Source of the DNA: a virus | Length of the DNA stretch: 64,000 bases | Direction: 5' to 3' (one strand) | IMG/VR virus record: IMGVR_UViG_3300043775_002158 | Coordinates: 1 to 64,000 of that record | Notes under the pieces: model-generated | What the model was told of the DNA's origin: nothing | The model's database searches: none | The model's input: the letters and a program-made list of their open reading frames with translations, nothing else | Translations under genes and position numbers: made by a program | Part shown: one piece after another, positions 34,021 through 61,616 of the stretch | Layout: the number at the start of each line of letters is the position of its first letter | How positions within the stretch are numbered: the first letter of the stretch is position 1

Positions 34021-34024
34021 ACAT

Positions 34025-34633: not shown

Positions 34634-34634
34634 T

Positions 34635-35719
<1,085 letters not shown>

Positions 35720-35723
<4 letters not shown>

Positions 35724-41817: not shown

Positions 41818-41851
41818 TATCTTAGGTCGAAAACTCAAAAAAGTCGAAGTG

Positions 41852-42567: not shown

Positions 42568-43260
42568 TTAAGAAATTACTAAAGGGAGATTTTTATCAAA
42601 TAACGCCTCAAAAAATAGTTTATTCTTTTCCCATTGTTTATTGGTCATACCTACCGATTTATGTGTGACCCCAAATTTGGTAGTTAGACCAATCTTAACC
42701 CCTTCTAATTGATTTTCAACACAGAACGAAATATCATAAAAATGGAACCCTTCAAACTGTTCATTAAATTCTTTCTTTAGGAGACTTTTACGGACTATAA
42801 AGAATAAACCGTCCACAATTACAACATCCTTAAGAACATCGTTAAAAACACCCTTAGAATAGTGATTAACGTGTCTTTTACCCTCATGGATATGACCAAC
42901 CACTCCAAACATATTTTCACGGTTTTGCCACCACATTCCACTTGTTAATTTATCTGTTCCAGCAATACCAATAATTCCGTATTCAGGATGTTTCTCAAAT
43001 AACTTAACAATCTTAGGTGTCATATTGGGTGTCTCCAAAATAAGATCATCGTGCATGAAAACAACGATATCATTAACACTTTCTTTTAACCCTTTGTTAT
43101 AGACTTGGGTTAATGACATTTGACCGTCATTTTCATACATCAATATTTCTGTATTCGGATGAGAAAACATTCTTTTCACATGATCGTAATATGTGGGATC
43201 AATCTTTCTCGTGGATATTACAACACTTACCATTTCATTATTCTTCGACATATATTGCAT
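42568..43260 (-). CDS. GT-A glycosyltransferase-like protein
   Basis: SLTQVYNKG, VFMHDD, GIIGIAG, VDGLF, FHFYDISFC. Confidence 0.8.
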   Translation of the reverse strand: MQYMSKNNEMVSVVISTRKIDPTYYDHVKRMFSHPNTEILMYENDGQMSLTQVYNKGLKESVNDIVVFMHDDLILETPNMTPKIVKLFEKHPEYGIIGIAGTDKLTSGMWWQNRENMFGVVGHIHEGKRHVNHYSKGVFNDVLKDVVIVDGLFFIVRKSLLKKEFNEQFEGFHFYDISFCVENQLEGVKIGLTTKFGVTHKSVGMTNKQWEKNKLFFEALFDKNLPLVIS

Positions 43261-47393: not shown

Positions 47394-47407
47394 AATTTTA
47401 AATTTAG

Positions 47408-47479
47408 TATTCCCGACGGGATTCGAACCCGTATTACCTCCGTGAAAGGGAGGTGACCTAACCATTAGTCGACAAGAAC
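47408..47479 (-). tRNA. tRNA-Glu (TTC)
   Basis: Cloverleaf; anticodon arm CCTCC-CTTTCAC-GGAGG; T-arm ACGGG-TTCGAAT-CCCGT; CCA not encoded. Confidence 0.92.
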
Positions 47480-47596
47480 AGATCCCGTTTTTTTTCTACA
47501 TTTAGCCCAAACACCAGTAGATCAGTATTTTGGGTTTTGACGCGAGAAGTCTACAAGGTTTCCCCATTAGACCGTTACCACGGGCAAACTCTACAG

Positions 47597-47684
47597 CGGA
47601 GAGAGTAGGATTCGAACCCACGGGCCAGTTTCCCGGCCTCCTGATTTCAAGTCAGGTGCAATAGACCAACTCTACCATCTCTCC
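47597..47684 (-). tRNA. tRNA-Ser (TGA)
   Basis: GGAGAGA/TCTCTCC acceptor, CCTGA-CTTGAAA-TCAGG, long variable arm, discriminator G. Confidence 0.95.
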
Positions 47685-47878
47685 GTTGACACCTTTATTT
47701 ATCCAACTCACAGGTGTCTTAGCTGTCCCCTTTCGGGTTAGGAATAATCATTTCGTCCTCACGAGGTCGGGGTGATGTCCCCTGACGTTCTTCCTATACG
47801 TCAATGTACGTTTCCATATGGTTGTCAAACCATTTCTCATCATATTGGACATACTATTCGGTGACTAACCGAATCGTG

Positions 47879-47952
47879 CGGAATGTACGGGACTCGAACC
47901 CGTGGGCTTCTCCGTGACAGGGAGACATGATAACCAACTTCACTAACACTCC
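47879..47952 (-). tRNA. tRNA-Asp (GTC)
   Basis: GGAGTGT/ACATTCC, TCTCC-CTGTCAC-GGAGA, TTCGAGT loop. Confidence 0.95.
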
Positions 47953-47958
47953 GTTTTG

Positions 47959-48034
47959 TGGGTGAGTTTGGATTCGAACCAAAGACCTAAAGTTTATGAG
48001 ACTTTTGCTCTAAAACCAGCTGAGCTACACACCC
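47959..48034 (-). tRNA. tRNA with CAT anticodon (Ile2 more likely than elongator Met)
   Basis: GGGTGTG/CTCACCC acceptor, AAAGT-CTCATAA-ACTTT; not initiator-like. Confidence 0.88.
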
Positions 48035-48126
48035 TATTAGTCTTTTCCTTACCTCTTAATAACCACATTGCCATCCCGGTGTTACTGCCGGGTGCTTACC
48101 ACTTGCGTGGAGTGATTATCACGTTG

Positions 48127-48199
48127 CGCTCCCTGAGGGTCACGATCCCCCGACTTCAAAATTAACAGTTTTGCGCTCTACCAACTGAGCTAAGGAAGC
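48127..48199 (-). tRNA. tRNA-Asn (GTT)
   Basis: GCTTCCT/AGGGAGC, CAAAA-CTGTTAA-TTTTG; atypical T-loop ATCGTGA. Confidence 0.88.
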
Positions 48200-48461
48200 G
48201 TGTTTGATTCCAACCCAACTTAAGTTGCACCATCCGTGTCATGCACTGGTTAACAAAGTCCTCGTTGAGTTAGTTTCAAAAAGTTACAGGTTTTTCGTAC
48301 CATCTATGTACATCATAACAGACATAGTCTGTGGTTACTTTTCGCTTAATGGTTAATTACTCCAACTTATAGTAACTCTACTCTCACCGTTCTACATCTA
48401 GATTCAAACGGATAGTTGAGATTCATAGACAGTGGGGTCACACCACCGTCGTCACCTGTTG

Positions 48462-48534
48462 AGCCCAAACTCAGACTCGAACTGAGGACCTAATCATTAC
48501 AAATGACTTGCTCTACCAACTGAGCTATCCGGGC
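48462..48534 (-). tRNA. tRNA-Thr (TGT)
   Basis: GCCCGGA/TTTGGGC, AGTCA-TTTGTAA-TGATT, CTCAG-TTCGAGT-CTGAG. Confidence 0.95.
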
Positions 48535-48552: not shown

Positions 48553-48582
48553 TGTCAAAGAACCACTTATTTTACAAAGGTA
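48553..48582 (-). promoter_or_regulatory. promoter (-7 TACCTTTG) and boxA-like leader GTTCTTTGACA of tRNA operon
   Basis: TAnnTTTG at 48575-48582; GTTCTTTGA also in the large-ncRNA leader (44939-44947). Confidence 0.65.
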
Positions 48583-48669
48583 ATAAATATATATGAATAT
48601 ACAAAATTATCTTAAAAATATTTTATAATCAATTATGAATCAATGTGATAAGAACTGATATTTATCAAT

Positions 48670-49185
48670 ATGACAAAAATAAAAGGACTCTCTCTCCTTT
48701 TATGTACTTTGTTCTTGGCATTCTCTTCATTTGCTCAGGACACACAAAAAGTGTACATATCTGGCGTTGAGAACAAAATTAAAATCGGACGTATGACGTC
48801 TAACCGAAACTTAGCTTTCGGAGTTAAAAACATTTTTGAAGAAATTTTACAGGATAAGGACTTCACAATCGTAGAGGTACGTAGTGAGGCTGACGTTTTA
48901 TTAAACGTTGATTTATTATTTTTTGACGTTAATAAAACTAAAAGAAACGTTTCAGTATTCCATTCTAATGTTGAAGAAACATTGGTAATAATGAAAGGTA
49001 CTATTACCGACAAATCAGGAAAAAAATTAAAAGAGGTGGTGGCCGAAGAATCAAGTTCAGAAATTTCTACATCAACGTTAATCACTGACGAAGGAAGTGG
49101 ACAAATAAACCAACAAGCATTGTCTTCCGCAATTAAGAAGACATGTGTTTTACTTGTAGATAAAATATTTTTAAATAAGAAATGA
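48670..49185 (+). CDS. exported CsgG-like/LptE-like alpha-beta protein
   Basis: Signal peptide SFA-Q; layout (LAFGVKNIFEEIL...ALSSAIKKTC.LLV) parallels 58128. Confidence 0.55.
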   Translation: MTKIKGLSLLLCTLFLAFSSFAQDTQKVYISGVENKIKIGRMTSNRNLAFGVKNIFEEILQDKDFTIVEVRSEADVLLNVDLLFFDVNKTKRNVSVFHSNVEETLVIMKGTITDKSGKKLKEVVAEESSSEISTSTLITDEGSGQINQQALSSAIKKTCVLLVDKIFLNKK

Positions 49186-50831
49186 AAAAACTAACATTAT
49201 TAATGGGATTATTTTTATTAATGTCCCTATCATCATTTGCCCAATTAACAATTAACCAATCTATAACTCCAACTACAGGTTTAAAAGTGGGAGATACATT
49301 AACGGTTAAATATACAATTAATAGAGGGGCAACAACACCTCGTTATTTTTGGTTAAGATACTCTTTTAATAATAAAGCATTGTCAATGGTGTCAAATAGT
49401 ACCACTTTTACACAAGGCAGTTCAACACAAACATTTTATACAGGTTGGGATAATTACAAATTTACACCGGCAGCAAATATTGTGGATACACAATTATATG
49501 CACAATATCAAGTTACACCTTGGGGATATGAGGTAAATTCTGATTGGAATGTTGGACAATTAACAATTCAAAGAGCCGACGCTTCAATTAATGGTGACAT
49601 TGCCACACAAAAATTTGTATTAAAAGACCAAAACACATATAATAATATTCATAAATTAGATTTGGCATATTCAATTAATGCAACAGATGAGTATATTTCA
49701 CCAATTACAAGAAGTTCAACAAACATATCTTTAACCAATGTGGTAGGTAACACATCTCAATTCAAAGTTAGAGTATTATTTCCACAAGGATATACAATTT
49801 CCGACCACAATGTTCAATTGATGAGATTAAAAACAGATGGTAGTGGTGATATTGATTGGTCACAACAACCAATCGCACAAAAAGCATTGGATGCAAGTGG
49901 TGAGGTAATATTCACATCGGGTGTTAAAGTCGGTGATAGTGTTGGTGTATTTGTATCTCCCGCTTCCCAAAAGACTTGGATGAACAACGTAATCACAGTT
50001 TCAGATGCATATAAAGCATTCTTAGGACACTCTCAAACTGATATTAGTGGAACGGCAAACTTCTTTACAAGACCTGTTTTAGAAAGAAAAATAGGTAATG
50101 TAACAAAAAACGATATGACATTTAACGAATCTGACTCATATAATTTATTTGCACACGTAATTGGACAAGATGTATCGGTAAACGCATTTATCCCAACATC
50201 AACTTCAACTTCTTGGAGATGGCATAGTGGTTTATTGAATCAAAGTTGGTTAGATGGTGTTACTAAGAATAGAGTATACATTACGGCTCCATCACAAACT
50301 GTTGATGCAGTATTTGCGTGGGGTGGTGATTTAAACTGGTCACACTCATCTCATCCTGACACAATTGCAACTAAAATTACACAAGGTAATTTCACAAACT
50401 CAATAAACGATAACAAATATCAATCATTCTCAGTAAAGTCGATGTCATATACTCAACCTACATTTGAAAAGGTAACTTTAGGAATTAACTCTACTTTGGA
50501 AAATGGTAAAGTTGTATTAACTACTACATTGACAAAAGAAGGATTGGCAGGTTTACAAGTTATAATGAATTATGACGAAAGTAGATTGACGTTGGATAAT
50601 GTAATATTTGATGCGGGAAGTACGATTACAAACTTCTCAACTCATAAAGATGGTAGATTGACATTTGGATCTATTGATCAATTAAAAACATCAAGAATTA
50701 AAGTAGGAACACCGTATAAATTAATTTTCACTCCTAAAGTTCAATTAACAAATACTGCCGGTTTATTCTTCTTTGTATTGGCGGATGCGGTTGATGGATT
50801 GGGTAAGAAAGTTGATTTGACAATAGAATAA
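49182..50831 (+). CDS. exported protein: cohesin/Ig-like + dockerin-like + cohesin-like domains
   Basis: Signal peptide; KVGDTLTV N-domain; ITVSDAY...GNVTKNDMTFNESDSY; LAGLQVIMNYDESRL...GRLTFG. Confidence 0.6.
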   Translation: MKKLTLLMGLFLLMSLSSFAQLTINQSITPTTGLKVGDTLTVKYTINRGATTPRYFWLRYSFNNKALSMVSNSTTFTQGSSTQTFYTGWDNYKFTPAANIVDTQLYAQYQVTPWGYEVNSDWNVGQLTIQRADASINGDIATQKFVLKDQNTYNNIHKLDLAYSINATDEYISPITRSSTNISLTNVVGNTSQFKVRVLFPQGYTISDHNVQLMRLKTDGSGDIDWSQQPIAQKALDASGEVIFTSGVKVGDSVGVFVSPASQKTWMNNVITVSDAYKAFLGHSQTDISGTANFFTRPVLERKIGNVTKNDMTFNESDSYNLFAHVIGQDVSVNAFIPTSTSTSWRWHSGLLNQSWLDGVTKNRVYITAPSQTVDAVFAWGGDLNWSHSSHPDTIATKITQGNFTNSINDNKYQSFSVKSMSYTQPTFEKVTLGINSTLENGKVVLTTTLTKEGLAGLQVIMNYDESRLTLDNVIFDAGSTITNFSTHKDGRLTFGSIDQLKTSRIKVGTPYKLIFTPKVQLTNTAGLFFFVLADAVDGLGKKVDLTIE

Positions 50832-50834
50832 TTT

Positions 50835-53423
50835 ATGAAGAAACTATTAGTAGTATTATTTTTATTTATATCATTTTTAGGGTTTGGTCAGTCGGTTTTG
50901 GCACCAGACCCTAAGTCATTTATTGTTAATACCACAGGACAAGATGCAAGTGGGTTTGAGTTAACTGGATTTAATTCAACCGCAACTTTATTAGCATCGG
51001 TGAGTTTAGTATCACCACCAGCAGGAACAACATTCTATTTAAACACTTACACAGGTCTAACCGCAGCAAGTGGTTTCAATATGATTGGTAATAAAACTAA
51101 ATTGGTGTTTACCGGAACAATGGCAAATATCAATACGGCATTGGCATCATTAAAAATTAACACAGGTTCTATTTCGGGTGATATTGTCATATCAGTCGCA
51201 GCAACTATAAATCCAACTGGTTTCTTTTACAATGGAACAAACGGACACTTTTATAGACCAATATCAACAGGAACAAGCTATACGGGTGCAAGAGCAGCGG
51301 CATTAAATACTACATTTAAAGGACAGACTGGATATTTAGTAACAATAACTTCGGCAGATGAAGATGCGTTTGTATTTAATAATGTACCACAAACAAACAT
51401 TTGGTTTGCACTAACGGATGAAGAAACAGAAGGCCAATGGAAAATTGATGCTGGTCCTGAAAAGGGAACTTTAATCAAAACATCAAACGGACAAACTGCG
51501 GGTAATATACAAGGACAGTACAATAACTGGGCACCTGGTGAACCAAACAATAGTGGTAACGAAGATTATGCGGTAACAAAATGGAACGGTTCTCAATGGA
51601 ATGATTTACCGAATGGATTTAGTTGCCCTTATGTAATTGAATATGGAACTTGGACCAATCCTGATGATGCAACATTTACCGAATTTTATACTAACAGTGT
51701 AGTTCATTCAAACGGAGAAACAATAAAAGCATTATTCAATTTTACATTTGGTGGAGCAACTGATAAAAGTAAATTTTCAGCAAGATTATTTAATAGAAGC
51801 GATGCGACATCAACATGGGTAGCCGGTGGTTCTTATAAATCATTAAGTGGATTGGGTAAAGTATATCTTTCAAATCAAATAGATACTGCAAAGATATTTT
51901 CAACCGCAATTCAATTAACGCCGGGTACAAATGATATGACACAATTTAGTTCTGCTGATATTGGTAAGGTCTATAAACTAACAACAACTGGAGCAAGTGG
52001 TGGTGGATGGGGAACGGACATTTATACAAGTGACTCTTATATACCCGCTATGGCAGTTCACGCAGGAGTTTTAACAATCGGACAAACAAAAGAAATTTAT
52101 ATTAAAATAGTTGAGGGAAAAAGTAGTTATTTAGGTTCAACCCGTAATGGAATCACAACGTCAGAATGGGGTGGATGGGGATTGAGTTATCAATTTGTAT
52201 CTCAACCATCTTCATACAAGGCAATATCATCACCTGGCCAAGTTGAATGGTGTGTGATATATGACTACGATGCATCAAATCAAAGATATAGAGTTGGGAT
52301 TGATAAGAGAGAATTTGATGGAACCAACGTATCACCAAATAATGTATCATCACTAAAATTATTTGATTTGTGGGATGGAAATGTAACATTTGATAGTGAA
52401 GACATATATTGGGCAAATTATTGGATTAATACACCAACCCAATTTAATTTTACGGGTTCATCATTTTCATCATTTATAAGACAAGGCAATGGATTTTACG
52501 GAGTAAGTAGTGAGTTTACCTTTTCACAATTAGGTACATACAAACAACACAAAATGGAATTAAATGAATATGATAATGTACAATTAAAAACATTATATAA
52601 TAACATTGTAACAGTATCGGATGTTTATTTGGCATTTAAGGAATTATCTAATAAGGGTTTATTTGGTAATCAAAGTGGTAATGAATTTGGATATGGTATT
52701 CAATATATAAATGCAGATGTGGATGATAATGGTGTATTCAATGAAGTGGATACATATAAATTATTACAAAATTTAACGGGTGTAAATGATTTAGTTAGCA
52801 GTTATACTTTGGATAATACTATAAAAGTAATTCCAGACTCAATCTATAATTTAATTGGTAAATCAACATGGAGTTCATTTACATCATACAAAGGTAAATC
52901 ATATTCATTTAGTTTATTGGATAATGTGTTGAATTACAATTACAATTTATCTGTGAGTTGGAAAGGTGATGTGAATTTATCACATTCAGCAACACCTCCT
53001 TCAAATGGTATAACAACAATGTCGGTTAGAACATCAATGAGTACACCGATATCAAACGAAATAAATTCATCAATTATGTCCGAAATTGTGGGAGATAGTG
53101 TTTATGTATATATTACAATAGACCCATTACAACAAGAATTGGTGGGGACACAGTTTAAGTTAAATTACGATAATGATTTATTAAAGTTTAATAATGTAAT
53201 ATATAAAACAAAAGGATTACCAACTAACTATGCGACGGACAAAGGGAATTATATTAATTTAGGTTCTCTAATAACGGATGGTGGAACTTTAGATAATACC
53301 ACTGAATATAAATTATCATTTACAACAAAAACAAAGTTGGAGAATATATTCGGTTTAATTTCGGTTGGGTTAATGGATGCAGTAAACAAAAGTGGTAGAA
53401 CATTAAAAGTAATAATGAAATAA
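50835..53423 (+). CDS. exported adhesin: C-type lectin + LCCL + dockerin-like + cohesin-like
   Basis: NGHFY...GYLVTITS.DE...WAPGEPNN...WNDL; WGTDIYTSDS..AMAVHAG..YLGSTRNGI; ADVDDNGVFNEVDTY; LVGTQFKLNYDNDLLKF. Confidence 0.8.
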   Translation: MKKLLVVLFLFISFLGFGQSVLAPDPKSFIVNTTGQDASGFELTGFNSTATLLASVSLVSPPAGTTFYLNTYTGLTAASGFNMIGNKTKLVFTGTMANINTALASLKINTGSISGDIVISVAATINPTGFFYNGTNGHFYRPISTGTSYTGARAAALNTTFKGQTGYLVTITSADEDAFVFNNVPQTNIWFALTDEETEGQWKIDAGPEKGTLIKTSNGQTAGNIQGQYNNWAPGEPNNSGNEDYAVTKWNGSQWNDLPNGFSCPYVIEYGTWTNPDDATFTEFYTNSVVHSNGETIKALFNFTFGGATDKSKFSARLFNRSDATSTWVAGGSYKSLSGLGKVYLSNQIDTAKIFSTAIQLTPGTNDMTQFSSADIGKVYKLTTTGASGGGWGTDIYTSDSYIPAMAVHAGVLTIGQTKEIYIKIVEGKSSYLGSTRNGITTSEWGGWGLSYQFVSQPSSYKAISSPGQVEWCVIYDYDASNQRYRVGIDKREFDGTNVSPNNVSSLKLFDLWDGNVTFDSEDIYWANYWINTPTQFNFTGSSFSSFIRQGNGFYGVSSEFTFSQLGTYKQHKMELNEYDNVQLKTLYNNIVTVSDVYLAFKELSNKGLFGNQSGNEFGYGIQYINADVDDNGVFNEVDTYKLLQNLTGVNDLVSSYTLDNTIKVIPDSIYNLIGKSTWSSFTSYKGKSYSFSLLDNVLNYNYNLSVSWKGDVNLSHSATPPSNGITTMSVRTSMSTPISNEINSSIMSEIVGDSVYVYITIDPLQQELVGTQFKLNYDNDLLKFNNVIYKTKGLPTNYATDKGNYINLGSLITDGGTLDNTTEYKLSFTTKTKLENIFGLISVGLMDAVNKSGRTLKVIMK

Positions 53424-53446
53424 AAACAAATTAAAAAACAAAAATT

Positions 53447-54130
53447 ATGGCAGACAGAAACGGAGACGGAGTTGTTTATCATCGCTCAGATTGTGGTGAT
53501 AATTATGTAAGATGGTATGGGTTCGGTGGAGATGGACCTTGTTCGGCGTGTGATACGTGGGGACTTACCAATAAAGCAATAAGATATATTCATGACCACC
53601 CTGAAATAAATCATAGACTTGAAGATGTGGTAGGTAGAGAGTGGGATGAAGAGGTTATGCCAGTATTAACAGAGGTTTATGAAGAAGTAAAAGAAGGTGT
53701 AATAGACGCATATAATTGGGTGGACGCAAACGCTTGTAATATAGCTGTAACAGCAGCAATCTCGGCGGGAGTTGTTTACGCATTCACACCAGAACCGGCA
53801 AACCCAACAGCGGTGGCAACATCAACTACTTTATCGGCAATGGCATCAACTATTACTAATATGGCAGTTAAAGTTGCGGTAGTAGGAGAAATGAGTGAAA
53901 TTATAACAAATGGATTTTTACTAATACCATTTGTAAGTGATAGTATTGACCACACTCTATTATACAATATAATTTCAAATTGTTTAGCTAAAAGTTTAGA
54001 TTCTGCGGAGTTATGGGCAACACCAGCCGGTGTTGGTATTGCGATTGGAGCAGCAATTGCACCTGTTATTGCGGATTTGATATGTAAAAAAACTTGTCCT
54101 GAAGGATTTACTAAAGCATTTGGTGCGTAA
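53447..54130 (+). CDS. hypothetical protein with hydrophobic Ala/Gly-rich helices
   Basis: No signal peptide; Cys-containing N-domain; AGVGIAIGAAIAPVIA. Confidence 0.7.
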   Translation: MADRNGDGVVYHRSDCGDNYVRWYGFGGDGPCSACDTWGLTNKAIRYIHDHPEINHRLEDVVGREWDEEVMPVLTEVYEEVKEGVIDAYNWVDANACNIAVTAAISAGVVYAFTPEPANPTAVATSTTLSAMASTITNMAVKVAVVGEMSEIITNGFLLIPFVSDSIDHTLLYNIISNCLAKSLDSAELWATPAGVGIAIGAAIAPVIADLICKKTCPEGFTKAFGA

Positions 54131-55023
54131 TGAAAAAACTAATAACCATATTATTTTTACTTTGTGTAAGTTTTGTTACAAATGCACAAATACAAAAACC
54201 AGATACGTTACAACTATCGGCAAAAGAACTATTTGGAGAAAGTGATGATTGGAACGATGTGGGTATATTACAATCCTATGTTAATTTTTCAAAAGATGTC
54301 CTATCATCATCAAACCTTTCAATTGGTGTAATTGGAAAACAAGTATCTACAACTCTTAATTTGGGATATAATAAATCATCATTGAATGGGAAGTGGGGAC
54401 ACTCATTTGCAGCATCAATAAACCCTATTTGGAATTATTATGGTGTAGGGTATGGTCTTAGTAGAAATACCGAAAAGAGAACAACTACAATACAAACATT
54501 TTATTCTACGGACTTTGATTTCCAAAAAGATATTAACTTATCATTTATTGATGTATTCAGAACAAAAAAATGGGGAACATTCGGTTATAGTTTAACAGCA
54601 TCAAAATCATTTTGGGGAACTTATCAGGGTGAGTGGGAAGGGAAATATACGGTTGATGAAAATGGTGATTTTAAAGATTTAATATATCCAATGATACCGG
54701 CATCAAGTGAAATAAGTTATAGAGGTATGATGATGTACACTTATACATTGAAAACAAAGAGAGTAAACATCTCACCACAAATATTTGCAATGAGTGATGT
54801 ATATAAAGTATTTAAAGATGGAACTGAATCAGATTTGGCATATGTAGATGATTTCAATTTGGACTTATATTATGGTACATCTATTGATTGGAAAATAACT
54901 AAAAGATTTGTATTGAATACCAATGTTAGATATAATACAACTTGGGATAAATTAAGTGAATCAGTCGGTTATAAAAAAAGTAACCCAATAATGTTTATGA
55001 TAGGAACAAACTTTCAATTTTAA
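54130..55023 (+). CDS. putative outer-membrane beta-barrel protein
   Basis: Signal peptide TNA-Q; alternating amphipathic strands; C-terminal IGTNFQF. Confidence 0.7.
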   Translation: MKKLITILFLLCVSFVTNAQIQKPDTLQLSAKELFGESDDWNDVGILQSYVNFSKDVLSSSNLSIGVIGKQVSTTLNLGYNKSSLNGKWGHSFAASINPIWNYYGVGYGLSRNTEKRTTTIQTFYSTDFDFQKDINLSFIDVFRTKKWGTFGYSLTASKSFWGTYQGEWEGKYTVDENGDFKDLIYPMIPASSEISYRGMMMYTYTLKTKRVNISPQIFAMSDVYKVFKDGTESDLAYVDDFNLDLYYGTSIDWKITKRFVLNTNVRYNTTWDKLSESVGYKKSNPIMFMIGTNFQF

Positions 55024-55397
55024 TGAGTAAAAAAGATTTAATATCATTCATAGTAATTTATTTATTAACCACATTTGTAATATTATTTAGTGGTTGTAGA
55101 AAAACGCAGACTATTCCAACACCACCACCGATAAATAAAGAATTTTTTAATTCACCCGAAAACAACGTTAAAAATGGGGATATTATTAATTTTAATTTAA
55201 CTACAGTTGGTGTTTATACTTTGACAATGATTGATACGGTTCAAAATCAAGTTGTGACCAGAGAAAGATTTACGGGTAAAATTGGTTTAAACTCACTTAA
55301 AATATTTACAAAAACTTTACCGACAAAATACCTAAGTGTCGTTTTAAAGGATCAAAATAATCAACAGATAGGTAAAACAAGAATAATAATAAATTAA
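55023..55397 (+). CDS. lipoprotein with T9SS-CTD-like Ig domain
   Basis: Lipobox FSGC; YTLTMID...G..GLNSLKIFTKTLP..YLSVVL...KTRIIIN. Confidence 0.55.
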   Translation: MSKKDLISFIVIYLLTTFVILFSGCRKTQTIPTPPPINKEFFNSPENNVKNGDIINFNLTTVGVYTLTMIDTVQNQVVTRERFTGKIGLNSLKIFTKTLPTKYLSVVLKDQNNQQIGKTRIIIN

Positions 55398-55410
55398 AAA
55401 ATAACAAAAA

Positions 55411-55779
55411 ATGAAAAAAGTATCTCTCGTACTCTTCGGTTTGATTCTACTTGCTGGATGTAGAAAATCAGATTTTCCAACGCCACCTCAATCAGTTAGC
55501 GACGATTTAAAAATTGCTAGTTTATCAGGATTAAAATTACAAACTGCATTTGTAACAAGTGAAGTTTCAATGAACATAAAAAGTGAGACATCTCAGACTG
55601 TAACTATCAGAATCTTTGATATTGCAAATAGAGTAGTGTCTAAATCAACAAGCGACGTAAAGTCAGGTGATAATATATTGAAGATATACACTTCATCATT
55701 ACCGTCATCAGGTTATAGAATAGCAATTTACGATCGTGCCGGTAATATGTTAGGTATTACGGACTTTAATAAAATTTAA
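55411..55779 (+). CDS. lipoprotein with T9SS-CTD-like Ig domain
   Basis: Lipobox LAGC; VTIRIFDIANRVV...SGDNILKIYTSSLPSSGYRI...DFNKI. Confidence 0.65.
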   Translation: MKKVSLVLFGLILLAGCRKSDFPTPPQSVSDDLKIASLSGLKLQTAFVTSEVSMNIKSETSQTVTIRIFDIANRVVSKSTSDVKSGDNILKIYTSSLPSSGYRIAIYDRAGNMLGITDFNKI

Positions 55780-55809
55780 GATAATTATAGTATATAAAAA
55801 CACAAAATT

Positions 55810-56118
55810 ATGGCAGAAGAACAACAAGAACAATCAACCGGTGGTTCAATTAAGAATATACTTATCGGTTTAGTAAGTACCATCACATTAGGTGTGGGTG
55901 GTTGGTTTACAACAAAATTAACGGGTGGTGACGAAAAAGAAACTCCGGCACAACAAGCTGCACCTGTAATCAACATTACAAACTCTAATCAACAATCACA
56001 AGCTGCAGGAGGTAAGACTGTTATTATTAAAGAAAAGTCAACAACACCAGCACCGGCACCAAAACCAAAACCTAAAAAAGATGGTGACGAATTTAAAGAA
56101 GAGACACCAAAATGGTAG
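55810..56118 (+). CDS. single-pass membrane protein with Pro/Lys-rich tail
   Basis: ILIGLVSTITLGVGGWF; PAPAPKPKPKK. Confidence 0.7.
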   Translation: MAEEQQEQSTGGSIKNILIGLVSTITLGVGGWFTTKLTGGDEKETPAQQAAPVINITNSNQQSQAAGGKTVIIKEKSTTPAPAPKPKPKKDGDEFKEETPKW

Positions 56119-56217
56119 GTTTGGGTTTAGAGGTTGAAACTGCAACCTTAATTTTTACGATTATAATAATTGGGATGTCGATAAAGACATCCTTGGAATT
56201 GACAAAAAAAGAAAAAA

Positions 56218-56826
56218 ATGGCTGATCAACAACCACCAAGTGGATTTAAAGAATTATTAGCAAATATGATGAAACGTAGATGGTTCATCACTGCAATTGT
56301 ATTAGGGGGATTTATGATAATCATAATGGGAATATTTGGGGCAATCCTAAATAAATCCGCTATTGAAGGAGAATGGAAAGAACTTCTACTATTGTTATTG
56401 GGTGCATTTATCGGTAGTTACGGTAAAATAATCGACTATTGGTTTAGTGATACTGATAAGGATAAAATGTTAGTTCAGAAAATGGATGAAGAAGATGGTG
56501 TATCGTTGAGTAATACTAACGATGGTCCAAATACTCCAATCGTACCAATGTCAATAGCACCATTAGTGTTATCAGAATCAACCGAACAAATAACCGAACA
56601 ATTAGTTGAAACACCAAAAGTAGAAAAGAAGGGTGTTGAAATCGATGAAGATGGTGACGGTGTTATGGATGGTTTAGATTTCGATGGTGATGGTAAAATC
56701 GATGAATATTTCGCACACAGACAATGTGAACACGTTTGGGGTGACTTAGACGGTGACGGAACAGAGGAGTGTTTGAAGTGTGGTAAAGTTAAGGATGAAT
56801 ACGCAGAAATGCATATGGAAGGATAA
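56218..56826 (+). CDS. two-TM membrane protein with DxDGDG Ca-binding repeats
   Basis: Two hydrophobic helices; DEDGDG, DFDGDG, DLDGDG; CEH...CLKC. Confidence 0.7.
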   Translation: MADQQPPSGFKELLANMMKRRWFITAIVLGGFMIIIMGIFGAILNKSAIEGEWKELLLLLLGAFIGSYGKIIDYWFSDTDKDKMLVQKMDEEDGVSLSNTNDGPNTPIVPMSIAPLVLSESTEQITEQLVETPKVEKKGVEIDEDGDGVMDGLDFDGDGKIDEYFAHRQCEHVWGDLDGDGTEECLKCGKVKDEYAEMHMEG

Positions 56827-56855
56827 AATAAACAAAAGACAAAAAATAAAAAACT

Positions 56856-57104
56856 ATGAAATTTAAAGAATGGGCTATTGAACTCTTCAAAGACGAAAGA
56901 GGTTCAATTTCAGTAAAACCAGTTATTGCATTTGTAGGGGCGATGTTCCTATGTGTGACTATGATCTTAAATTCGTTCTCTCACGCGGATTTCGCCCCAT
57001 CACCTGAATTGGTGAATGCGGTGATGATTATCACGGGAATTGGGATGGGTGCCGATACGATGGATAAATTCTCTCACAAAAAGAAAGAAGAAACAGAAGG
57101 TTAA
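56856..57104 (+). CDS. small two-TM membrane protein (holin-like)
   Basis: FKDERGSIS.KP followed by two TM helices and charged C-tail. Confidence 0.6.
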   Translation: MKFKEWAIELFKDERGSISVKPVIAFVGAMFLCVTMILNSFSHADFAPSPELVNAVMIITGIGMGADTMDKFSHKKKEETEG

Positions 57105-57106
57105 TA

Positions 57107-57138
57107 TGAAGGAGGGTTTATCCCTCCTTTTTTTTTTC
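57107..57138 (+). terminator. intrinsic terminator
   Basis: GAAGGAGGG-TTTAT-CCCTCCTTT plus long T-run. Confidence 0.75.
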
Positions 57139-57161
57139 ATATATTTATTAAAAATGAATTT

Positions 57162-57368
57162 ATGAAAAATTTAAGAGATATTTTAGCTTTAAGGTTTATT
57201 CAATTAGTATTTGTATGGGTAAGTTTTGCTCTAACATTTCAGGTGTTTATGATTATAACACATTTTACCAATCCTGAATTGAGTACAAAAATAGGTAATG
57301 AAATTATGTGGAAAATAGACGGTACATTTAAAAATGATCCTGATAATATTTGGTATGAAAAAAAATAA
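57162..57368 (+). CDS. small membrane protein
   Basis: One TM helix, 68 aa. Confidence 0.65.
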   Translation: MKNLRDILALRFIQLVFVWVSFALTFQVFMIITHFTNPELSTKIGNEIMWKIDGTFKNDPDNIWYEKK

Positions 57369-57374
57369 AACAAG

Positions 57375-58118
57375 ATGACAAAAAACGAAATATTATATAA
57401 TGTCGGTTTAACCGATAAAGTATATTCAGAACAAAAAGATATTGATTTTAAAGCACAAAGGTTAAAATTAATTAAATGGATTGAAGATAAAAAATCAGAC
57501 ACACAAGGATTTGTTGCAACGAAAGATAATACAATTTATATTGTGTGGAGAGGTAGTTCTTCTAAAAAAGATTTCCAAAACGACGCCTCTATCGATAAAG
57601 TTCCTTTTATTGAAGAAGGTGAGAAAGTTCATATTGGATTTAAAACCTGTTGGGATGCCGTAAAGGATGATACATATAAAGCATTAGATATTGCACTTAA
57701 AAACTTAGGTCAAGAACATTCAATAGATAATATTGTTGTTTGTGGACACAGTTTAGGTGCGGCAATTTCTACCTTGTGTGCATATGAAATCTATTCAATT
57801 TATAAATCAAATAAAATTATATGTTGTACCATAGGTAGTCCAAGAGTTGGTAATAAAATATTCAAACAAAACTTTGATAAATCACCAATTGAATCGTTAA
57901 GGATTGTTAACAATTTAGATATTGTAACTCGTGCACCAAATATTGGATATCACCACGTTAATACCGAATTACGTATTGATAGTGAGGGTAAAGTTAAAAA
58001 ATGGATGATTGATTGGCAAAGAGTTGGTGAATATCTTAAAGCCGTATTCACAGGTAAGACTGCGAAAGATCATATGACAAATAATTACATAAGTGCATTA
58101 AATAAATGGAACCCATAA
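57375..58118 (+). CDS. class 3 lipase
   Basis: IVWRGS, VHIGF, GHSLGAA, GSPRVGN, DIVTRAP, DH.TNNY. Confidence 0.92.
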   Translation: MTKNEILYNVGLTDKVYSEQKDIDFKAQRLKLIKWIEDKKSDTQGFVATKDNTIYIVWRGSSSKKDFQNDASIDKVPFIEEGEKVHIGFKTCWDAVKDDTYKALDIALKNLGQEHSIDNIVVCGHSLGAAISTLCAYEIYSIYKSNKIICCTIGSPRVGNKIFKQNFDKSPIESLRIVNNLDIVTRAPNIGYHHVNTELRIDSEGKVKKWMIDWQRVGEYLKAVFTGKTAKDHMTNNYISALNKWNP

Positions 58119-58127
58119 AAAAAATAT

Positions 58128-58847
58128 ATGAAAAAATTATTAATATTATTAAGTGTTTGTTTAGTAAGTCTTGTTGCAAATAGTCAAACAATAGGTAAAA
58201 CTAAGACAGAGGACTTCAAGGCGGACTTTGAAAAGAAAAAGGATATAAGTACTTACTTAGATTATGACGGACCTCAAATACCCGTTCAAATCCTTAAATG
58301 TGGTATTTCTGACGAAGTATATGAGATGTATCCAGAATTAAAGGAAAAACGTGTAGGTTTAGGTGTTGCTAATATCTCTATGGAATATCTTGAGAACTTA
58401 AACAGATTTAAATTTACTGAGGACAAGACAGAAATTAAGAATCGCATGGTAAAACAATTCCAAGCATCTCAAGCCGGTATTTCTGAGAACAAATTAGATG
58501 GTCGTGGTAAAATCAATTTGGCTAAGTATTTTGTAACTATCGAGTGTTATGATTATTCGGTATCTGAAGATGAAACTATCAACCTAAAAGACGGTATTAA
58601 AGATAATATGGTTACTCGTATTGGTTTACAAGTTAGATTTACTGACGCCGAGACAGGACTAGTATTTGCAGGTTCAGGTTTAGGTGAAGCTAAGACAACA
58701 AGAGAGTTGACTTTATTATCTGATGCAACTATCGACCCAATTAAATTTAATCAATCAACCATCAGTATCTCAACTAAAAAGGCGTTAGATATTGCGGTTG
58801 CTAACATTCTTGATAGAATGATTAAAAAAGGTATTTTCACAAAATAA
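58128..58847 (+). CDS. csgG: CsgG-family (curli assembly/transport) protein
   Basis: Signal peptide; GLGVANISMEYLENLNRFKFTE...AKYFVT...IGLQVRFTDAETG...G.G.A...KKALDIAV. Confidence 0.75.
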   Translation: MKKLLILLSVCLVSLVANSQTIGKTKTEDFKADFEKKKDISTYLDYDGPQIPVQILKCGISDEVYEMYPELKEKRVGLGVANISMEYLENLNRFKFTEDKTEIKNRMVKQFQASQAGISENKLDGRGKINLAKYFVTIECYDYSVSEDETINLKDGIKDNMVTRIGLQVRFTDAETGLVFAGSGLGEAKTTRELTLLSDATIDPIKFNQSTISISTKKALDIAVANILDRMIKKGIFTK

Positions 58848-59080
58848 TGAAATACGAAGTTGTTGATATTCCACAACCGGAAAATTGTGAAAAATGTACA
58901 CCATGTCTTAGACTTAGATTAATGGAAATGGGGTTTATTACGGGAGAAAGAATTGAATTTGGAGAAAGTAGATTAGGTTTATATATGGTTAATATATTAA
59001 CCGAAAATGACCATATCTCTTCGGTGGTTGCACTTAGACAAGAAGAATTGGATAGAATATGTTTAAAAGGGGTTTTATAA
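58847..59080 (+). CDS. feoA: FeoA-like SH3 protein
   Basis: RLRLMEMGFITGERI...VALRQEE. Confidence 0.75.
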   Translation: MKYEVVDIPQPENCEKCTPCLRLRLMEMGFITGERIEFGESRLGLYMVNILTENDHISSVVALRQEELDRICLKGVL

Positions 59081-59103
59081 CCCCTTTTTTAGTATTTATA
59101 TGT

Positions 59104-59283
59104 ATGGAAAAATTTTATAGAACATATGACGATAGAGTCTTTTTTGGTATTTGTAGCGGTTTGGGGGTTAGAACCAATATCGATCCTTTAGTTTGGAGAT
59201 TATTGTTTTTTTTCTTAATTTTTTCACCGGTACCAATAATAACAGGTTATTTATTAACTACAATTTTAACTAAAAGTGTATGA
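59104..59283 (+). CDS. pspC: PspC-domain membrane protein
   Basis: Start ATG 59104; FYRTYDDRVFFGICSGLG...IDPLVWRL. Confidence 0.85.
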   Translation: MEKFYRTYDDRVFFGICSGLGVRTNIDPLVWRLLFFFLIFSPVPIITGYLLTTILTKSV

Positions 59284-60107
59284 AAAAATTTTTATTAATC
59301 GTCGGTTTAATTTTAATTTTAACGTTATTTGTTTCAATAATGTTAAACGCTCAAGTAAGTTCTTGGAGAAATAATTCACAACAAAGAACAACCGCACCAA
59401 GAATTCAACCATCAACTCCACAAAGAAATGACGTTAGTCGATGGAGAACACAAACAGAACCAATTAGACCAGGTCAACCTATTCCAAATAGACCTTTAGT
59501 GAGAAGATGGAGAGGTGGGGGTGTAAATCCATATGGATTAATGTGGGGAAATTGGGGGTGGTATCAACCATACCCATATATTTGGTACGATGATTATGGA
59601 TGGAGACATAGAAGTGTAGTTCGTGTTTATGAAAATGGAAAAAGAGATACTGTTAAAAAGGAAACATATTATACTTTAGGTATTGGACATACAAATAACA
59701 ATCAAGCTTCTTTTTGGGGTGCTGTAGGTGGTAATAAAGGATACTTTATTGTTGATTACGTTATGACCTATGAAATTGATCGCAACCAATATTTTCCAAA
59801 TGGTAAAATTAATGAAGTTGATTTTCCGTTAAGTAAAAATGACTTTTTAAAAGAGGGTACATTATATCTTGGTGGAGGTAAGAGATTCGGTAAATTAGGT
59901 GTCCATGGAATGGTTGGATTTGGAAATGAAATTATTAGATACCAAGGTAAAGATGATTTAGGTGGTATTTCATTTCCTAAATCAAATTCAAATTTTACAA
60001 CATTTAAATTTGGTATTATAAGAGATTTCAAATTCTTCACATTAAAGTTAGATAGAGACCCAATAAGAAATTACAATCAAATATCAATTGGATTGAATAA
60101 TAAGTAA
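59280..60107 (+). CDS. exported protein: Arg/Pro/Trp-rich N-region + beta-barrel-like C-region
   Basis: Signal peptide LNA-Q; repeated VS(S/R)WR; Gly/aromatic amphipathic strands. Confidence 0.6.
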   Translation: MKKFLLIVGLILILTLFVSIMLNAQVSSWRNNSQQRTTAPRIQPSTPQRNDVSRWRTQTEPIRPGQPIPNRPLVRRWRGGGVNPYGLMWGNWGWYQPYPYIWYDDYGWRHRSVVRVYENGKRDTVKKETYYTLGIGHTNNNQASFWGAVGGNKGYFIVDYVMTYEIDRNQYFPNGKINEVDFPLSKNDFLKEGTLYLGGGKRFGKLGVHGMVGFGNEIIRYQGKDDLGGISFPKSNSNFTTFKFGIIRDFKFFTLKLDRDPIRNYNQISIGLNNK

Positions 60108-61555
60108 TGAAAAAAAATCTAATTGTTTTATTAATTTTATGTTTCATAGGTTTTAAATCATATGGACAAACATTTACACAAACATTTATTGATAAATGTA
60201 CAGGTGAAGTTAAAGTTGCAACAACAACTTATATAAGTGGTAATGCATTTGTATCTTTTTATAATCAAAGTAAAACATTCACACCTTTAGAAGTCCAAAC
60301 AGGACAATTACAATTATGGTTACAAACAACTTACGCAACATATAACTCGATGGCCTGTCCAACAAATCAGGTAGTTCAACAAACAATACAAAATACAGTT
60401 ACACAGGCGGCGGCAACCGCAGCAAGTAATGCAGCATCTTCGGCGGCAAGTAATGCGGCATCTTCAGCTGCAAGTAATGCGGCAAGTTCATCGGCATCAA
60501 CTGCGGCGAGTTCGTCGGCATCAACTGCTGCGAGTTCGTCGGCATCAAGTAGTTCCGCCGCAACATCAAGTTCAAGTACAACAACATCATCTAGTAGTTC
60601 ATCTTCATCTAGTAGTTCATCTTCATCTAGTAGTTCATCTTCATCTTCTGAATCAAAGACTGAGAGTAGTTCTTCATCATCGGAATCAAAATCTGAAACA
60701 AAGAGTGAATCAAAATCTGAAAGTAAATCAGAAGAAAAAAAATCAGAAAGTAAATCAGAAGAAAAAAAAGAAGAGAAAAAGTCAGAGGAAAAGAAAGAGG
60801 AAAAGAAAGAGGAAAAGAAAGAGGAAAAGAAAGAGGAGAAGAAGAAGGAAGAAAAAAAAGATAAAAAGGAAGATAAGAAAGAAAAAAAGAAAGGAGGAGT
60901 ATTAAATCCGATGTTAATTGCCTCAGATTATACTGTTGCTCAAAATGCGGATAAAAGTTTTGGTTCTATGTTAGGGTTGGGTTGGAGTAAATCATCATTA
61001 ATGGGTGACGAATCTTTTTCAGCAAATGCAATTATATGGAGTAACCTAAAACAATTTGCGTTAGGTGGTGGATATACCAAAATGGACTTTAGTGGTGGTA
61101 AATTAAATGCCATACATTCTTATGGTGTAACAACCGCATATTTGAATGGTAATTATATGGGTTTACTTGGTTATACTTACATTAAACCACATCCTAAATT
61201 TGGAACTTACGGATACAATATAGGTGTTGTAAATTTATTCATTAAAGATGAAAAAGGTAAATTTAATTATAGTGTTGTAAGTTCAGCTGTTGCATTTTGG
61301 ACTAAACCATATTCATATTCAAAGAAACTTTCAATATCACCTCAATTATTTGTTATGTCTTCACCATTATCTTATAATACAGTTACGGGAGTAAGTATGG
61401 TTAATAGACACGCAGGATATTTGGTTGGAGGTTCGTTTGATTATAAATTAAGTAAAAGATTTGGGTTTACTTTTAATTATAGAATGAACGGATCAACTCA
61501 ACCATATAGTCCTATTTTACATAACTTCTTGATTGGTAGTAGAATGACATTATAA
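60107..61555 (+). CDS. exported protein with Ser/Ala and Lys/Glu low-complexity stalk and C-terminal beta-barrel
   Basis: Signal peptide; AASNAASS repeats, poly-Ser, EEKK repeats; amphipathic strands to C-terminus. Confidence 0.7.
   Translation: MKKNLIVLLILCFIGFKSYGQTFTQTFIDKCTGEVKVATTTYISGNAFVSFYNQSKTFTPLEVQTGQLQLWLQTTYATYNSMACPTNQVVQQTIQNTVTQAAATAASNAASSAASNAASSAASNAASSSASTAASSSASTAASSSASSSSAATSSSSTTTSSSSSSSSSSSSSSSSSSSSSESKTESSSSSSESKSETKSESKSESKSEEKKSESKSEEKKEEKKSEEKKEEKKEEKKEEKKEEKKKEEKKDKKEDKKEKKKGGVLNPMLIASDYTVAQNADKSFGSMLGLGWSKSSLMGDESFSANAIIWSNLKQFALGGGYTKMDFSGGKLNAIHSYGVTTAYLNGNYMGLLGYTYIKPHPKFGTYGYNIGVVNLFIKDEKGKFNYSVVSSAVAFWTKPYSYSKKLSISPQLFVMSSPLSYNTVTGVSMVNRHAGYLVGGSFDYKLSKRFGFTFNYRMNGSTQPYSPILHNFLIGSRMTL
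60409..60890 (+). repeat. coding tandem repeats (24-nt AASNAASS units, 18-nt poly-Ser units, 12-nt GAGGAAAAGAAA units)
   Basis: Visible directly in sequence. Confidence 0.85.
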
Positions 61556-61585
61556 AAAAATCCCCGAAGTATAAACCACGGGGAT
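61554..61585 (-). terminator. intrinsic terminator of minus-strand transcript
   Basis: ATCCCCG-12nt-CGGGGAT with A7 on + strand (U-tract on -). Confidence 0.75.
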
Positions 61586-61616
61586 ATGACAAAAAATAAA
61601 TGTACCTCTCTCCTGA
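61554..61616 (-). ncRNA. putative antisense RNA / 3'UTR complementary to start of gene 48670
   Basis: CAGGAGAGAGGUACAUUUAUUUUUUGUCAUAU can form about 28 bp with 48668-48698. Confidence 0.45.

Follow-up and report, generated by a model that had tools for sequence, protein, structure and literature searches.

A jumbo-phage gene module of exported CsgG-fold, cohesin-like and lectin proteins that may re-dress the envelope of its host

Results

A 17-gene island encodes mostly exported and membrane proteins

We analysed a window of 64,000 nucleotides, the first 64 kb of IMG/VR record IMGVR_UViG_3300043775_002158, and within it an island at 48670-61555 whose genes (g01-g17, Table 1) form a module that, judged from its sequence, probably rebuilds the surface of the infected cell. 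As an earlier note on this DNA had listed, the island holds 17 co-oriented open reading frames (ORFs), all on the plus strand and tightly packed head to tail, with overlaps of 1-22 nt and gaps of at most 99 nt. The record is 105,374 bp long, with a CheckV completeness of 32%. Because it also encodes TerL, portal and major capsid protein (MCP), at 73-82 kb downstream of the island, and because related contigs reach 324-336 kb, it is a fragment of a ~330-kb tailed freshwater jumbo phage, and near-identical sequence is present in lake-water metagenomes from many studies. The three virion and packaging genes agree with the phage origin that the earlier note had assumed, and all three of its refutation checks that could be tried favoured a real phage module. 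A megablast search of GenBank phages with the island gave no match, and PHROGs held no family for 10 of the island proteins.

A heuristic scan of 129 ORFs of the record flagged signal-peptide-like N-termini in 10 of the 17 island proteins, compared with 3 of the 112 other ORFs (Fisher p = 2e-8). Together with lipoboxes in g06 and g07 and hydrophobic transmembrane (TM)-like segments in g04, g08-g11 and g15, this enrichment bears out the earlier statement that most island products are exported or membrane-bound. Seven proteins (g01, g02, g03, g05, g13, g16 and g17) carry signals of the signal peptidase I (SPI) type, and all seven predicted cleavage sites (FA↓Q, FG↓Q, NA↓Q, NS↓Q, YG↓Q) place a glutamine at +1. 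Glutamine directly after the SPI cleavage site is the Q-rule of Bacteroidetes (PMC5837995), so that these signals fit a Bacteroidota-type host. The Q-rule site is retained in nearly all homologues of these proteins, the exception being g01, most of whose homologues have a long-form N-terminal membrane anchor instead.

The same signals bear on whether the products could be parts of the virion, for example lectin-bearing fibres or decorations. Lectin and cohesin-like immunoglobulin or jelly-roll folds do occur in phage fibres, the promoter motifs of the island are of late type (see below) and the terminase gene lies ~12 kb away; against this, virion assembly in the cytoplasm is incompatible with the ten cleavable signals, which are of Sec or lipoprotein type and have Bacteroidota-specific sites, and the island proteins matched no PHROG structural family. 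We regard a role in the virion as extremely improbable, and describe the proteins below as components of the proposed envelope module.

Table 1 Features of the island and its surroundings, in window coordinates.
Feature	Position	Strand	Description	Basis
tmRNA gene	41851-42247	-	Tag ending LATSKVAA; further upstream of the tRNA array	
tRNA array	47407-48534	-	Six tRNA genes (Glu, Ser, Asp, Met, Asn, Thr); left border of the island	
Late-promoter-like motif	48658-48665	+	7/8 variant of TATTTATA, 4 nt before the g01 ATG	Motif counts
g01	48670-49185	+	Small exported protein (SPI, FA↓Q), putative short paralog of g13	Profile-profile comparison
g02	49182-50831	+	Exported; dockerin-like segment and C-terminal cohesin module (residues 264-549)	Paralogy, model, Pfam
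g03	50835-53423	+	Exported; C-type lectin (164-267), LCCL (392-448), dockerin-like segment, cohesin (585-862)	
g04	53447-54130	+	Accessory; no signal peptide, C-terminal hydrophobic segments, one TM-like segment in the scan	
g05	54130-55023	+	Exported (NA↓Q); outer-membrane-protein candidate	
g06	55023-55397	+	Small lipoprotein, lipobox FSGC; beta-sandwich-like domain	
g07	55411-55779	+	Small lipoprotein, lipobox LAGC; beta-sandwich-like domain	
g08	55810-56118	+	Bitopic membrane protein; N-terminal anchor, Pro/Ala/Lys-rich tail	
g09	56218-56826	+	Membrane protein; acidic DxDGDG-type tail, four Cys/His (C-x-H...C-x-x-C cluster)	
g10	56856-57104	+	Small, very conserved membrane protein	
Terminator-like hairpin	57108-57130	+	Intrinsic type, 9-bp stem and T run, between g10 and g11	
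Second late-promoter-like motif	57141-57148	+	7/8 variant, 13 nt before the g11 ATG	Motif counts
g11	57162-57368	+	Small membrane protein (68 aa), paralog of the long-form g01 N-terminal TM domain	
g12	57375-58118	+	Class-3 lipase, GHSLG, no signal peptide; accessory	Pfam Lipase_3 E 8e-27, 94.3 bits
g13	58128-58847	+	Exported, non-lipidated CsgG-fold protein; modelled head-to-tail homo-oligomer	Fold, family, oligomer model
g14	58847-59080	+	FeoA-domain protein; accessory	Pfam FeoA 24.7 bits
g15	59059-59283	+	PspC-domain membrane protein; accessory	Pfam PspC 51.7 bits
g16	59280-60107	+	Exported (NA↓Q); Trp/Arg/Pro-rich	
g17	60107-61555	+	Exported (YG↓Q); two-Cys N-domain, linker, C-terminal outer-membrane-protein-like domain	
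Near-copy of the g01 start	61584-61614	+	Non-coding (ATG and ~9 codons), just 3' of g17	Matches 48668-48698

g13 has a CsgG fold and g01 is its putative short paralog

The earlier note had named two CsgG-like proteins, g13 and g01, and this is borne out at the level of fold and superfamily. g13 itself has no Pfam match at an expectation value (E) below 0.1, searches of the PDB with the single g13 and g01 sequences gave no match, and the g13 family profile did not find CsgG there. An exhaustive phmmer search of 1.84 billion representatives found 220 relatives of g13, of which 33 were aligned; 14 of these 33 match CsgG (PF03783, best 1.9e-17) and six match LpoB, and the language-model neighbours of g13 belong to CsgG/HfaB clusters. 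The AlphaFold2 (AF2) model of g13, with a predicted local distance difference test (pLDDT) score of 80.9, has the CsgG structures 4uv2, 4uv3 and 6l7a as its top Foldseek matches (E 2e-7 to 2e-6 over 215-237 columns). VIA-align superposes the model on CsgG 6lqh_A with Z 12.7 and a root-mean-square deviation (rmsd) of 3.1 Å over 178 residues, 3 Z units above the next family; the matches that follow are PelC (Z 9.7), LptE (Z 7.4) and other periplasmic or outer-membrane lipoproteins. The best viral structural match is a phage protein named CsgG.

Modelled in four copies, g13 reaches an interaction prediction score from aligned errors (ipSAE) of 0.75, compared with 0.00 for the best control, with contacts that agree to at least 95% and a partner pLDDT of at least 79. 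The modelled interface is head-to-tail and places the sheet of residues 139-183 against the helix of residues 78-107. In calibration, 20 of 30 solved homomers passed the mark used for homo-oligomers, as did 1 of 23 monomers. As CsgG rings have already been solved, the pass by g13 may be recall of these rings, or likeness to them only.

For g01, BLASTP against g13 found no match, a search of the ESM Atlas returned unnamed viral clusters only, and an untrimmed hhalign comparison of the g01 family with g13 covered just 28 C-terminal columns. Once trimmed and joined by gp019 of the Flavobacterium phage vB_FspM_immuto (hereafter immuto), the g01 family aligned with the g13/CsgG alignment at 92.7% and E 4e-7 over 129 columns, with one deletion of ~29 residues, and it is this alignment that makes a second CsgG-like protein right at superfamily level. 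In many related phages (for example L050:2049-2699) g01 is ~215 aa long and begins with a TM domain homologous to g11, the two having the motif W(K/R)IDGTFKN-P-NIWY in common in aligned translations; the N-terminal domain of g01 and the free-standing g11 thus appear to have arisen by fission or fusion of genes in the module.

The earlier note took the CsgG-like protein to be an outer-membrane secretion pore, which would amount to a curlin-free, type VIII-like system that exports the lectin, cohesin and dockerin-like proteins to the surface or to vesicles, where they would polymerise and clump host cells or attach to particles. A CsgG fold that spans almost all of the g13 chain, the modelled head-to-tail oligomer and a long beta-hairpin that AF2 predicts at residues 134-173 are in keeping with such a pore, as are the SPI signals of g02 and g03, for which no other outer-membrane route is evident, the lipobox kept by a third viral lineage (see below) and the CsgG/CsgF clusters known in pelagimyophages (PMC7029224). 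g13 itself, however, begins with an SPI-type signal ending in ANS↓Q, without a lipobox Cys, and none was seen in its closest representative P0121 or in immuto gp017; more distant relatives have G-C. Hairpin 1 of g13 comprises 18 aa, seven of them charged and none aromatic, compared with 23 aa, four charged and three aromatic, in E. coli CsgG, and hairpin 2 has six charged and no aromatic residues, all of these being crude, alignment-dependent counts. Pfam searches found no CsgE, CsgF or curlin repeats among the 17 island proteins, and PF10614 and PF07012 drew no match from the record, from immuto or from two relatives of 97-100% completeness, which upholds the earlier observation that the island has no curlin-repeat subunit. 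CsgG passes unfolded small subunits, whereas the cargo here would be multidomain Ca-binding proteins of 550-860 aa. Bacterial members of the g13 subfamily are fusions to a caspase or a Ser/Thr kinase, which are a better fit to a periplasmic oligomerisation domain than to a channel. Export through a CsgG-type pore thus seems unlikely to us. Because of the missing lipobox, the charged hairpin 1, the absence of CsgE, CsgF and curlins and the caspase and kinase fusions, we interpret g13 and g01 as forming rings or plugs: by analogy with other members of the CsgG/PelC/LptE fold class, they are more likely to be a ring in the periplasm, or the partner of a barrel, than a curli-type channel.

Two exported proteins carry cohesin modules and dockerin-like segments

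g02 and g03 have a C-terminal module of ~285 residues in common (26% identity, E 9e-17). Its AF2 model has a pLDDT of 76, exceeding 87 over the last 120 residues, and the last ~125 aa adopt a cohesin fold (E 2.6e-7, target-normalised template modelling score (TMt) 0.66, rmsd 3.4 Å), nearly all of the top 50 Foldseek matches being cohesins. Pfam Cohesin (PF00963) is matched by 19 of 29 family members; the window g03 itself scores 22.1 bits against a cut-off of 24.1, which orthologues exceed with 27.2, 24.7 and 37.6 bits. Against the PDB, the family profile finds the scaffoldin cohesin 4ums at E 0.0046. Dockerin_1 (PF00404) is matched below threshold by 9 of the 29 members (best E 4.4e-3), and one g03 repeat, in the helical segment N-terminal to the cohesin, fits D-x-D-x-N-G-x-x-N-x-x-D followed by a helix, the first repeat being degenerate. 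Of the two cohesin/dockerin-like scaffolds described earlier, the cohesin part therefore stands, by fold and by Pfam, and the dockerin part stays sub-threshold.

Weak, half-domain Dockerin_1 matches in large ORFs of relatives and of immuto (E 4e-4 to 0.02) are probably generic Ca-binding loops, and we do not count them as partners for the cohesins. A weak half-dockerin match (E 0.004), to the Ca-loop, also lies at record positions 70328-70399, within a 539-aa ORF (70115-71734) in the head and packaging region by the terminase gene.

g03 also holds a Lectin_C domain (PF00059, 29.9 bits against a cut-off of 22.6) and an LCCL domain (43.1 bits). The lectin aligns with mannose-binding protein and CD23 in the PDB, including the GEPNN and WND segments, with EPN at residues 236-238, and these EPN and WND motifs suggest a Ca-dependent lectin of the mannose/N-acetylglucosamine (GlcNAc) type. 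WND is present in all 33 g03 homologues with the lectin and EPN in 26. Domain architecture varies within the g03 family: 24 homologues have the lectin without LCCL, seven have both and six have another N-terminal part. Several glycosyltransferases and a UDP-galactopyranose mutase are encoded at 30211-35723, 13-18 kb upstream of the island, and at 42568-43260. The phage may also change host surface glycans, which the g03 lectin could in principle recognise.

Outer-membrane candidates, lipoproteins and small membrane proteins

g05 and the C-terminal domain of g17, formed by its last 220 residues, are paralogous (25% identity over 230 aa, E 4e-5). One of 20 members of their family matches DUF5777 (2e-4) and one OMP_b-brl (0.02), and the family profile has no match in the PDB. 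g05 ends in F-Q-F; g17 ends in L, with F in its immuto and third-lineage orthologues. The conserved g17 N-domain is homologous to immuto gp018 (31% identity, E 3e-8) and is followed by a linker of ~170 aa, first Ser-rich and then Glu/Lys-rich (65 S, 32 K and 27 E of 169 residues). g16 has neither a family match nor a PDB profile match nor any barrel sign, and since its C-terminal residue is K it has no beta-signal. A strand-amphipathicity heuristic for barrels did not separate OmpA from soluble beta proteins. The three beta-barrel candidates of the earlier note thereby reduce to the paralogs g05 and g17, with weak outer-membrane-protein (OMP) hints.

g06 and g07, of 122-124 aa, are paralogous at E 4e-8. 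Their family matches DUF3244 (11 of 23 members) and Por_Secre_tail (9 of 23, best 1.4e-3) below threshold, DUF3244 equally well, and its profile found nothing informative in the PDB. Against sorting-domain models (PF18962, TIGR04183) of the type IX secretion system (T9SS), g07 scores 19.3 bits where 27 is the cut-off and 15.9 where it is 23. The two proteins had been described as lipoproteins resembling C-terminal domains (CTDs); the lipoboxes are there, and the likeness to the T9SS CTD is sub-threshold. Being lipoproteins without a cargo domain, g06 and g07 appear not to be T9SS substrates in the usual sense.

The hydrophobic stretch of g08 (~residues 16-37) was read by eye from the translation and had not been flagged by the heuristic scan; the protein is homologous to immuto gp016 (E 4e-4). 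g09, which has one or two TM segments and whose tail motifs were likewise read from the translation, might tether the cohesin proteins to the membrane if the tail is periplasmic. g04 has no family match in Pfam or PHROGs. The labels given earlier to the lipase, FeoA, PspC, C-type lectin and LCCL domains were all sound, with Pfam scores over their cut-offs. Spanin or holin roles for g06-g08 were considered and dropped, as the Pro/Ala/Lys-rich tail of g08 has no coiled coil and there are no matches to lysis families.

These proteins could also be seen as a purely periplasmic device, in which the lectin and cohesin proteins attach to peptidoglycan or to glycans of the periplasm and, together with the rings, lipoproteins and membrane proteins (PspC where present), brace the envelope or time lysis in a long jumbo-phage cycle. 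Such a device would suit SPI signals that come without a recognised outer-membrane export signal, an EPN lectin that could bind GlcNAc-type sugars, and CsgG-fold relatives that include the peptidoglycan-linked LpoB and the TolB N-domain; late-type promoter motifs and the PspC of some versions would fit as well. PspC, however, is an accessory found in 9 of 39 loci, Pfam and PHROGs show no holin, spanin or endolysin family in the island, and the OMP-like g17 and g05 together with two lipoproteins point to the outer membrane. We therefore hold a device confined to the periplasm to be unlikely, and the re-dressing of the whole envelope remains our preferred interpretation.

A core of the module is conserved across three phage lineages

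Homologues of g13 form 6401 clusters at 90% identity and occur at 524 IMG/VR viral loci. We counted gene presence across 39 loci with full flanks, throughout which the island gene order is retained. g13 is the most conserved island gene (39 of 39 loci, 88% mean identity). With it, g01 (39), g02 (37), g03, g08 (39) and g17 (38) occur in 35-39 loci, and g06 and g07 (32 each), g09 (35) and g11 (32) in 32-35. g10 is present in 26 loci, at 85-98% identity, g05 in 22 and g16 in 21, whereas g04 (11), FeoA (10), PspC (9) and the lipase (7) are sporadic, FeoA and PspC co-varying with the lipase. In place of the single 17-gene apparatus proposed earlier we thus find a conserved core of about 10-12 genes with variable accessories; the lipase, FeoA, PspC and g04 are accessory insertions, not machine parts.

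Among 185,579 prokaryote species genomes, one per species, close relatives of g13 were found only on two short, mis-binned contigs of metagenome-assembled genomes (MAGs), 2.7 and 9.1 kb long, one of them from a Lake Mendota bin. Close relatives are therefore essentially absent from bacteria, and the module is not a common chromosomal operon of Bacteroidota, in agreement with the earlier note.

A protein search of GenBank phages identified a reduced version of the module, seven genes compared with 17, in immuto (NC_055915), a cultured 160-kb myophage of Flavobacterium sp. LMO8. Its gp013-gp019 are, in order, a lectin protein (gp013, 38% identical to the g03 lectin), a weak cohesin protein, a cohesin protein (gp015), a g08-like protein (gp016), a g13-like protein (gp017, 54% identical to g13), a g17-like protein (gp018) and a g01-like protein (gp019), and all exported proteins among them have Q at +1. 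Lectin and cohesin are on separate proteins in immuto, and the module lies beside replication genes; the annotation reads 'lectin C-type domain-containing', 'cohesin domain-containing' or hypothetical protein only. A third viral lineage, with CsgG-like proteins of ~35% identity that have retained the lipobox, keeps the order cohesin protein, CsgG-like, g17-like, g01-like. Co-occurrence of these genes in other phages, as the earlier note had expected, is thus seen in hundreds of related phages, the block being conserved in more than 500 viral contigs, and in immuto and the third lineage, and because order is kept in the 39 full loci and in these two settings the core is a co-inherited unit.

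The variable genes could suggest that the island is no single machine at all, merely a hot spot of unrelated secreted 'moron' genes acting alone. Seven genes (g04, g05, g10, g12, g14, g15 and g16) are each found in only 7-26 of the 39 loci, the lectin and LCCL content of g03 varies and there is an internal terminator. Core order, however, is kept across three lineages with g13 identities of only ~35-54%, and the block contains the paralog pairs g01/g13, g02/g03, g05/g17, g06/g07 and g11 with the g01 N-domain, so that we consider independent action of its genes very unlikely and continue to treat the core as one module.

Late-type transcription signals and a possible scar of gene relocation

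The 105-kb record holds 42 copies of the octamer TATTTATA, of which 27 fall no more than 60 nt upstream of a start on the same strand, such as those of TerL and portal. It stands 4-35 nt upstream of many such starts, for example at window positions 2138, 3749, 9056, 17935 and 37294 and at record positions 73176 (TerL) and 75010 (portal). Of 35 copies of the 8-mer ATATTTAT, 24 stand upstream of a start, those of g01 and g11 included. TATTTATA looks like the late promoter of the phage and is close to TATAAATA, the late promoter of phage T4. Since motif variants precede g01 and g11 and a strong terminator-like hairpin lies between g10 and g11, the island suggests two late transcription units. A sigma-70 promoter scan gave no more sites than in shuffled sequence, and a scan for the Bacteroidota -33/-7 pattern gave a single site, at 48575-48605 on the minus strand, facing the tRNA array.

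The near-copy of the g01 start beyond g17 aligns locally with the start itself at a score of 40, compared with 16.8 ± 2.5 and a maximum of 26 for shuffles. As the g01-like gene of immuto and of the third lineage occupies this very position, behind the g17-like gene, the near-copy may be a scar left when g01 moved to the front of the island. Beyond it, the right border of the island is formed by convergent minus-strand genes, among them those for a cREC_REC protein and a T4-type RNA ligase.

Discussion

Taken as a whole, the evidence makes it reasonably probable, in our judgement, that the island is a phage-specific and probably late module whose Sec- and lipoprotein-exported products assemble in the periplasm and outer membrane of a Flavobacterium-type host and re-dress its envelope. 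The Sec and lipoprotein pathways of this Bacteroidota host would export the products, which would then assemble in its periplasm and outer membrane. The core would consist of a ring-type homo-oligomer of g13 with its short paralog g01; the OMP-like g17 with its long spacer and its paralog g05; the cohesin/dockerin-like scaffolds g02 and g03, one of them with a putative Ca-dependent lectin of mannose/GlcNAc type; the lipoproteins g06 and g07; and the small inner-membrane proteins g08-g11. In the periplasm, the CsgG-fold proteins would form rings or pair with the barrel proteins, much as PelC does with PelB and LptE with LptD. The net effect would be an infected envelope re-dressed with glycan-binding, self-associating proteins, which could hide the receptors of cells and of lysis debris, or turn both sticky.

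Several observations weigh against this interpretation. The ring or plug analogy is based on fold similarity alone, and the CsgG-like protein of the third lineage still has a lipobox, so that an outer-membrane location is possible there. The motifs ahead of g01 and g11 are only 7/8 variants, and the immuto module follows replication genes, which would suit earlier expression. g05, g16 and g17 are beta-barrel candidates only, with no PDB profile match and, for g05 and g17, single-member Pfam hints. The dockerin-likeness is sub-threshold, and the monomer model of the C-terminal module has a predicted template modelling score (pTM) of 0.74, so that the dockerin-like helical segment may simply pack on its own cohesin.

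In a bolder form of the same idea, the phage would coat infected Flavobacteria on the outside with a lattice like that of a cellulosome, held together by Ca-dependent cohesin-dockerin contacts and bearing lectins at its tips. Its parts would leave the cell by a new outer-membrane route made of non-lipidated CsgG/PelC-like rings and phage barrels, and the resulting sticky cells and debris would capture hosts or particles, or serve as decoys or shields for progeny. We put this forward tentatively, as an improbable extension of envelope re-dressing.

The module belongs, as far as its sequence indicates, among the phage-encoded envelope modules, and our literature search found no description of this particular gene combination. 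Pelagimyophages of the HTVC008M group (PMC7029224) and the OM43 phage Melnitz (PMC9004378) carry CsgG/CsgF clusters without recognisable curlins, for which a surface change or 'sibling capture' has been proposed as a role. Those clusters resemble the present module in that CsgG-superfamily genes are phage-borne within a small cluster of exported proteins that has no curlin subunits. They encode a bona fide CsgG with CsgF, close to alphaproteobacterial type VIII secretion system (T8SS) genes, whereas this module has no CsgF, no direct Pfam CsgG match and no lipobox; it has a second, short paralog, adds cohesin/dockerin-like lectin proteins, lipoproteins and OMP-like proteins, and belongs to a host phylum that is probably Bacteroidota. 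With the enterobacterial CsgG channel (PDB 4uv2/4uv3, 6lqh), g13 has in common the fold (Z 12.7) and the modelled head-to-tail oligomer, and it differs in its ~12% identity, its lack of a lipid anchor, its shorter and charged hairpin 1 and the absence of CsgE, CsgF, CsgA and CsgB partners.

In the PelC-PelB and LptE-LptD pairs, an outer-membrane barrel is partnered by a lipoprotein of this alpha/beta fold, which acts as a ring or a plug. PelC and LptE are the second-best structural matches of g13, g01 is about the size of PelC, and genes for CsgG-fold and OMP-like proteins are adjacent across the lineages. The likeness shown is one of fold; g13 and g01 are not lipidated, the partner barrels g17 and g05 are candidates only, and the island has no polysaccharide synthase or lipopolysaccharide (LPS) transport genes. 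Cellulosomes and the non-cellulosomal cohesins of Clostridium perfringens (PDB 2jh2) resemble g02 and g03 in the cohesin fold and in one dockerin-type Ca loop-helix. In contrast to cellulosomes, g02 and g03 combine dockerin-like and cohesin modules in a single chain; a C-type lectin, sometimes joined by LCCL, takes the place of enzymes as cargo, and any docking would occur in the envelope of a Gram-negative cell infected by a phage.

A survey of huge phages reported that they encode OMPs, PspA and sortase B, with 678 of 1,603 OMPs coming from freshwater (bioRxiv 10.64898/2026.10.24.761521, October 2026). Large-genome phages in that survey have beta-barrel OMPs, often beside other envelope genes, as the present phage may have; the words CsgG, curli, cohesin, dockerin and lectin do not appear in its text, and the module is not described there.

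The phage lineage that carries the module is very common in lakes, as the 6401 g13 clusters and 524 viral contigs attest, and about 4% of its ~330-kb genome is spent on proteins tailored to the secretion pathway of the host. As the cultured pair of immuto and Flavobacterium sp. LMO8 carries the core, the role of the module is directly testable. Its function would assign a role to non-canonical, non-lipidated CsgG-fold rings and, if cohesin-dockerin-type assembly does take place, would represent the first use of it by a phage. It would also reveal how large phages reshape the envelope of Bacteroidota, key degraders of polysaccharides and colonisers of particles, with possible effects on adhesion, aggregation, receptor masking and grazing.

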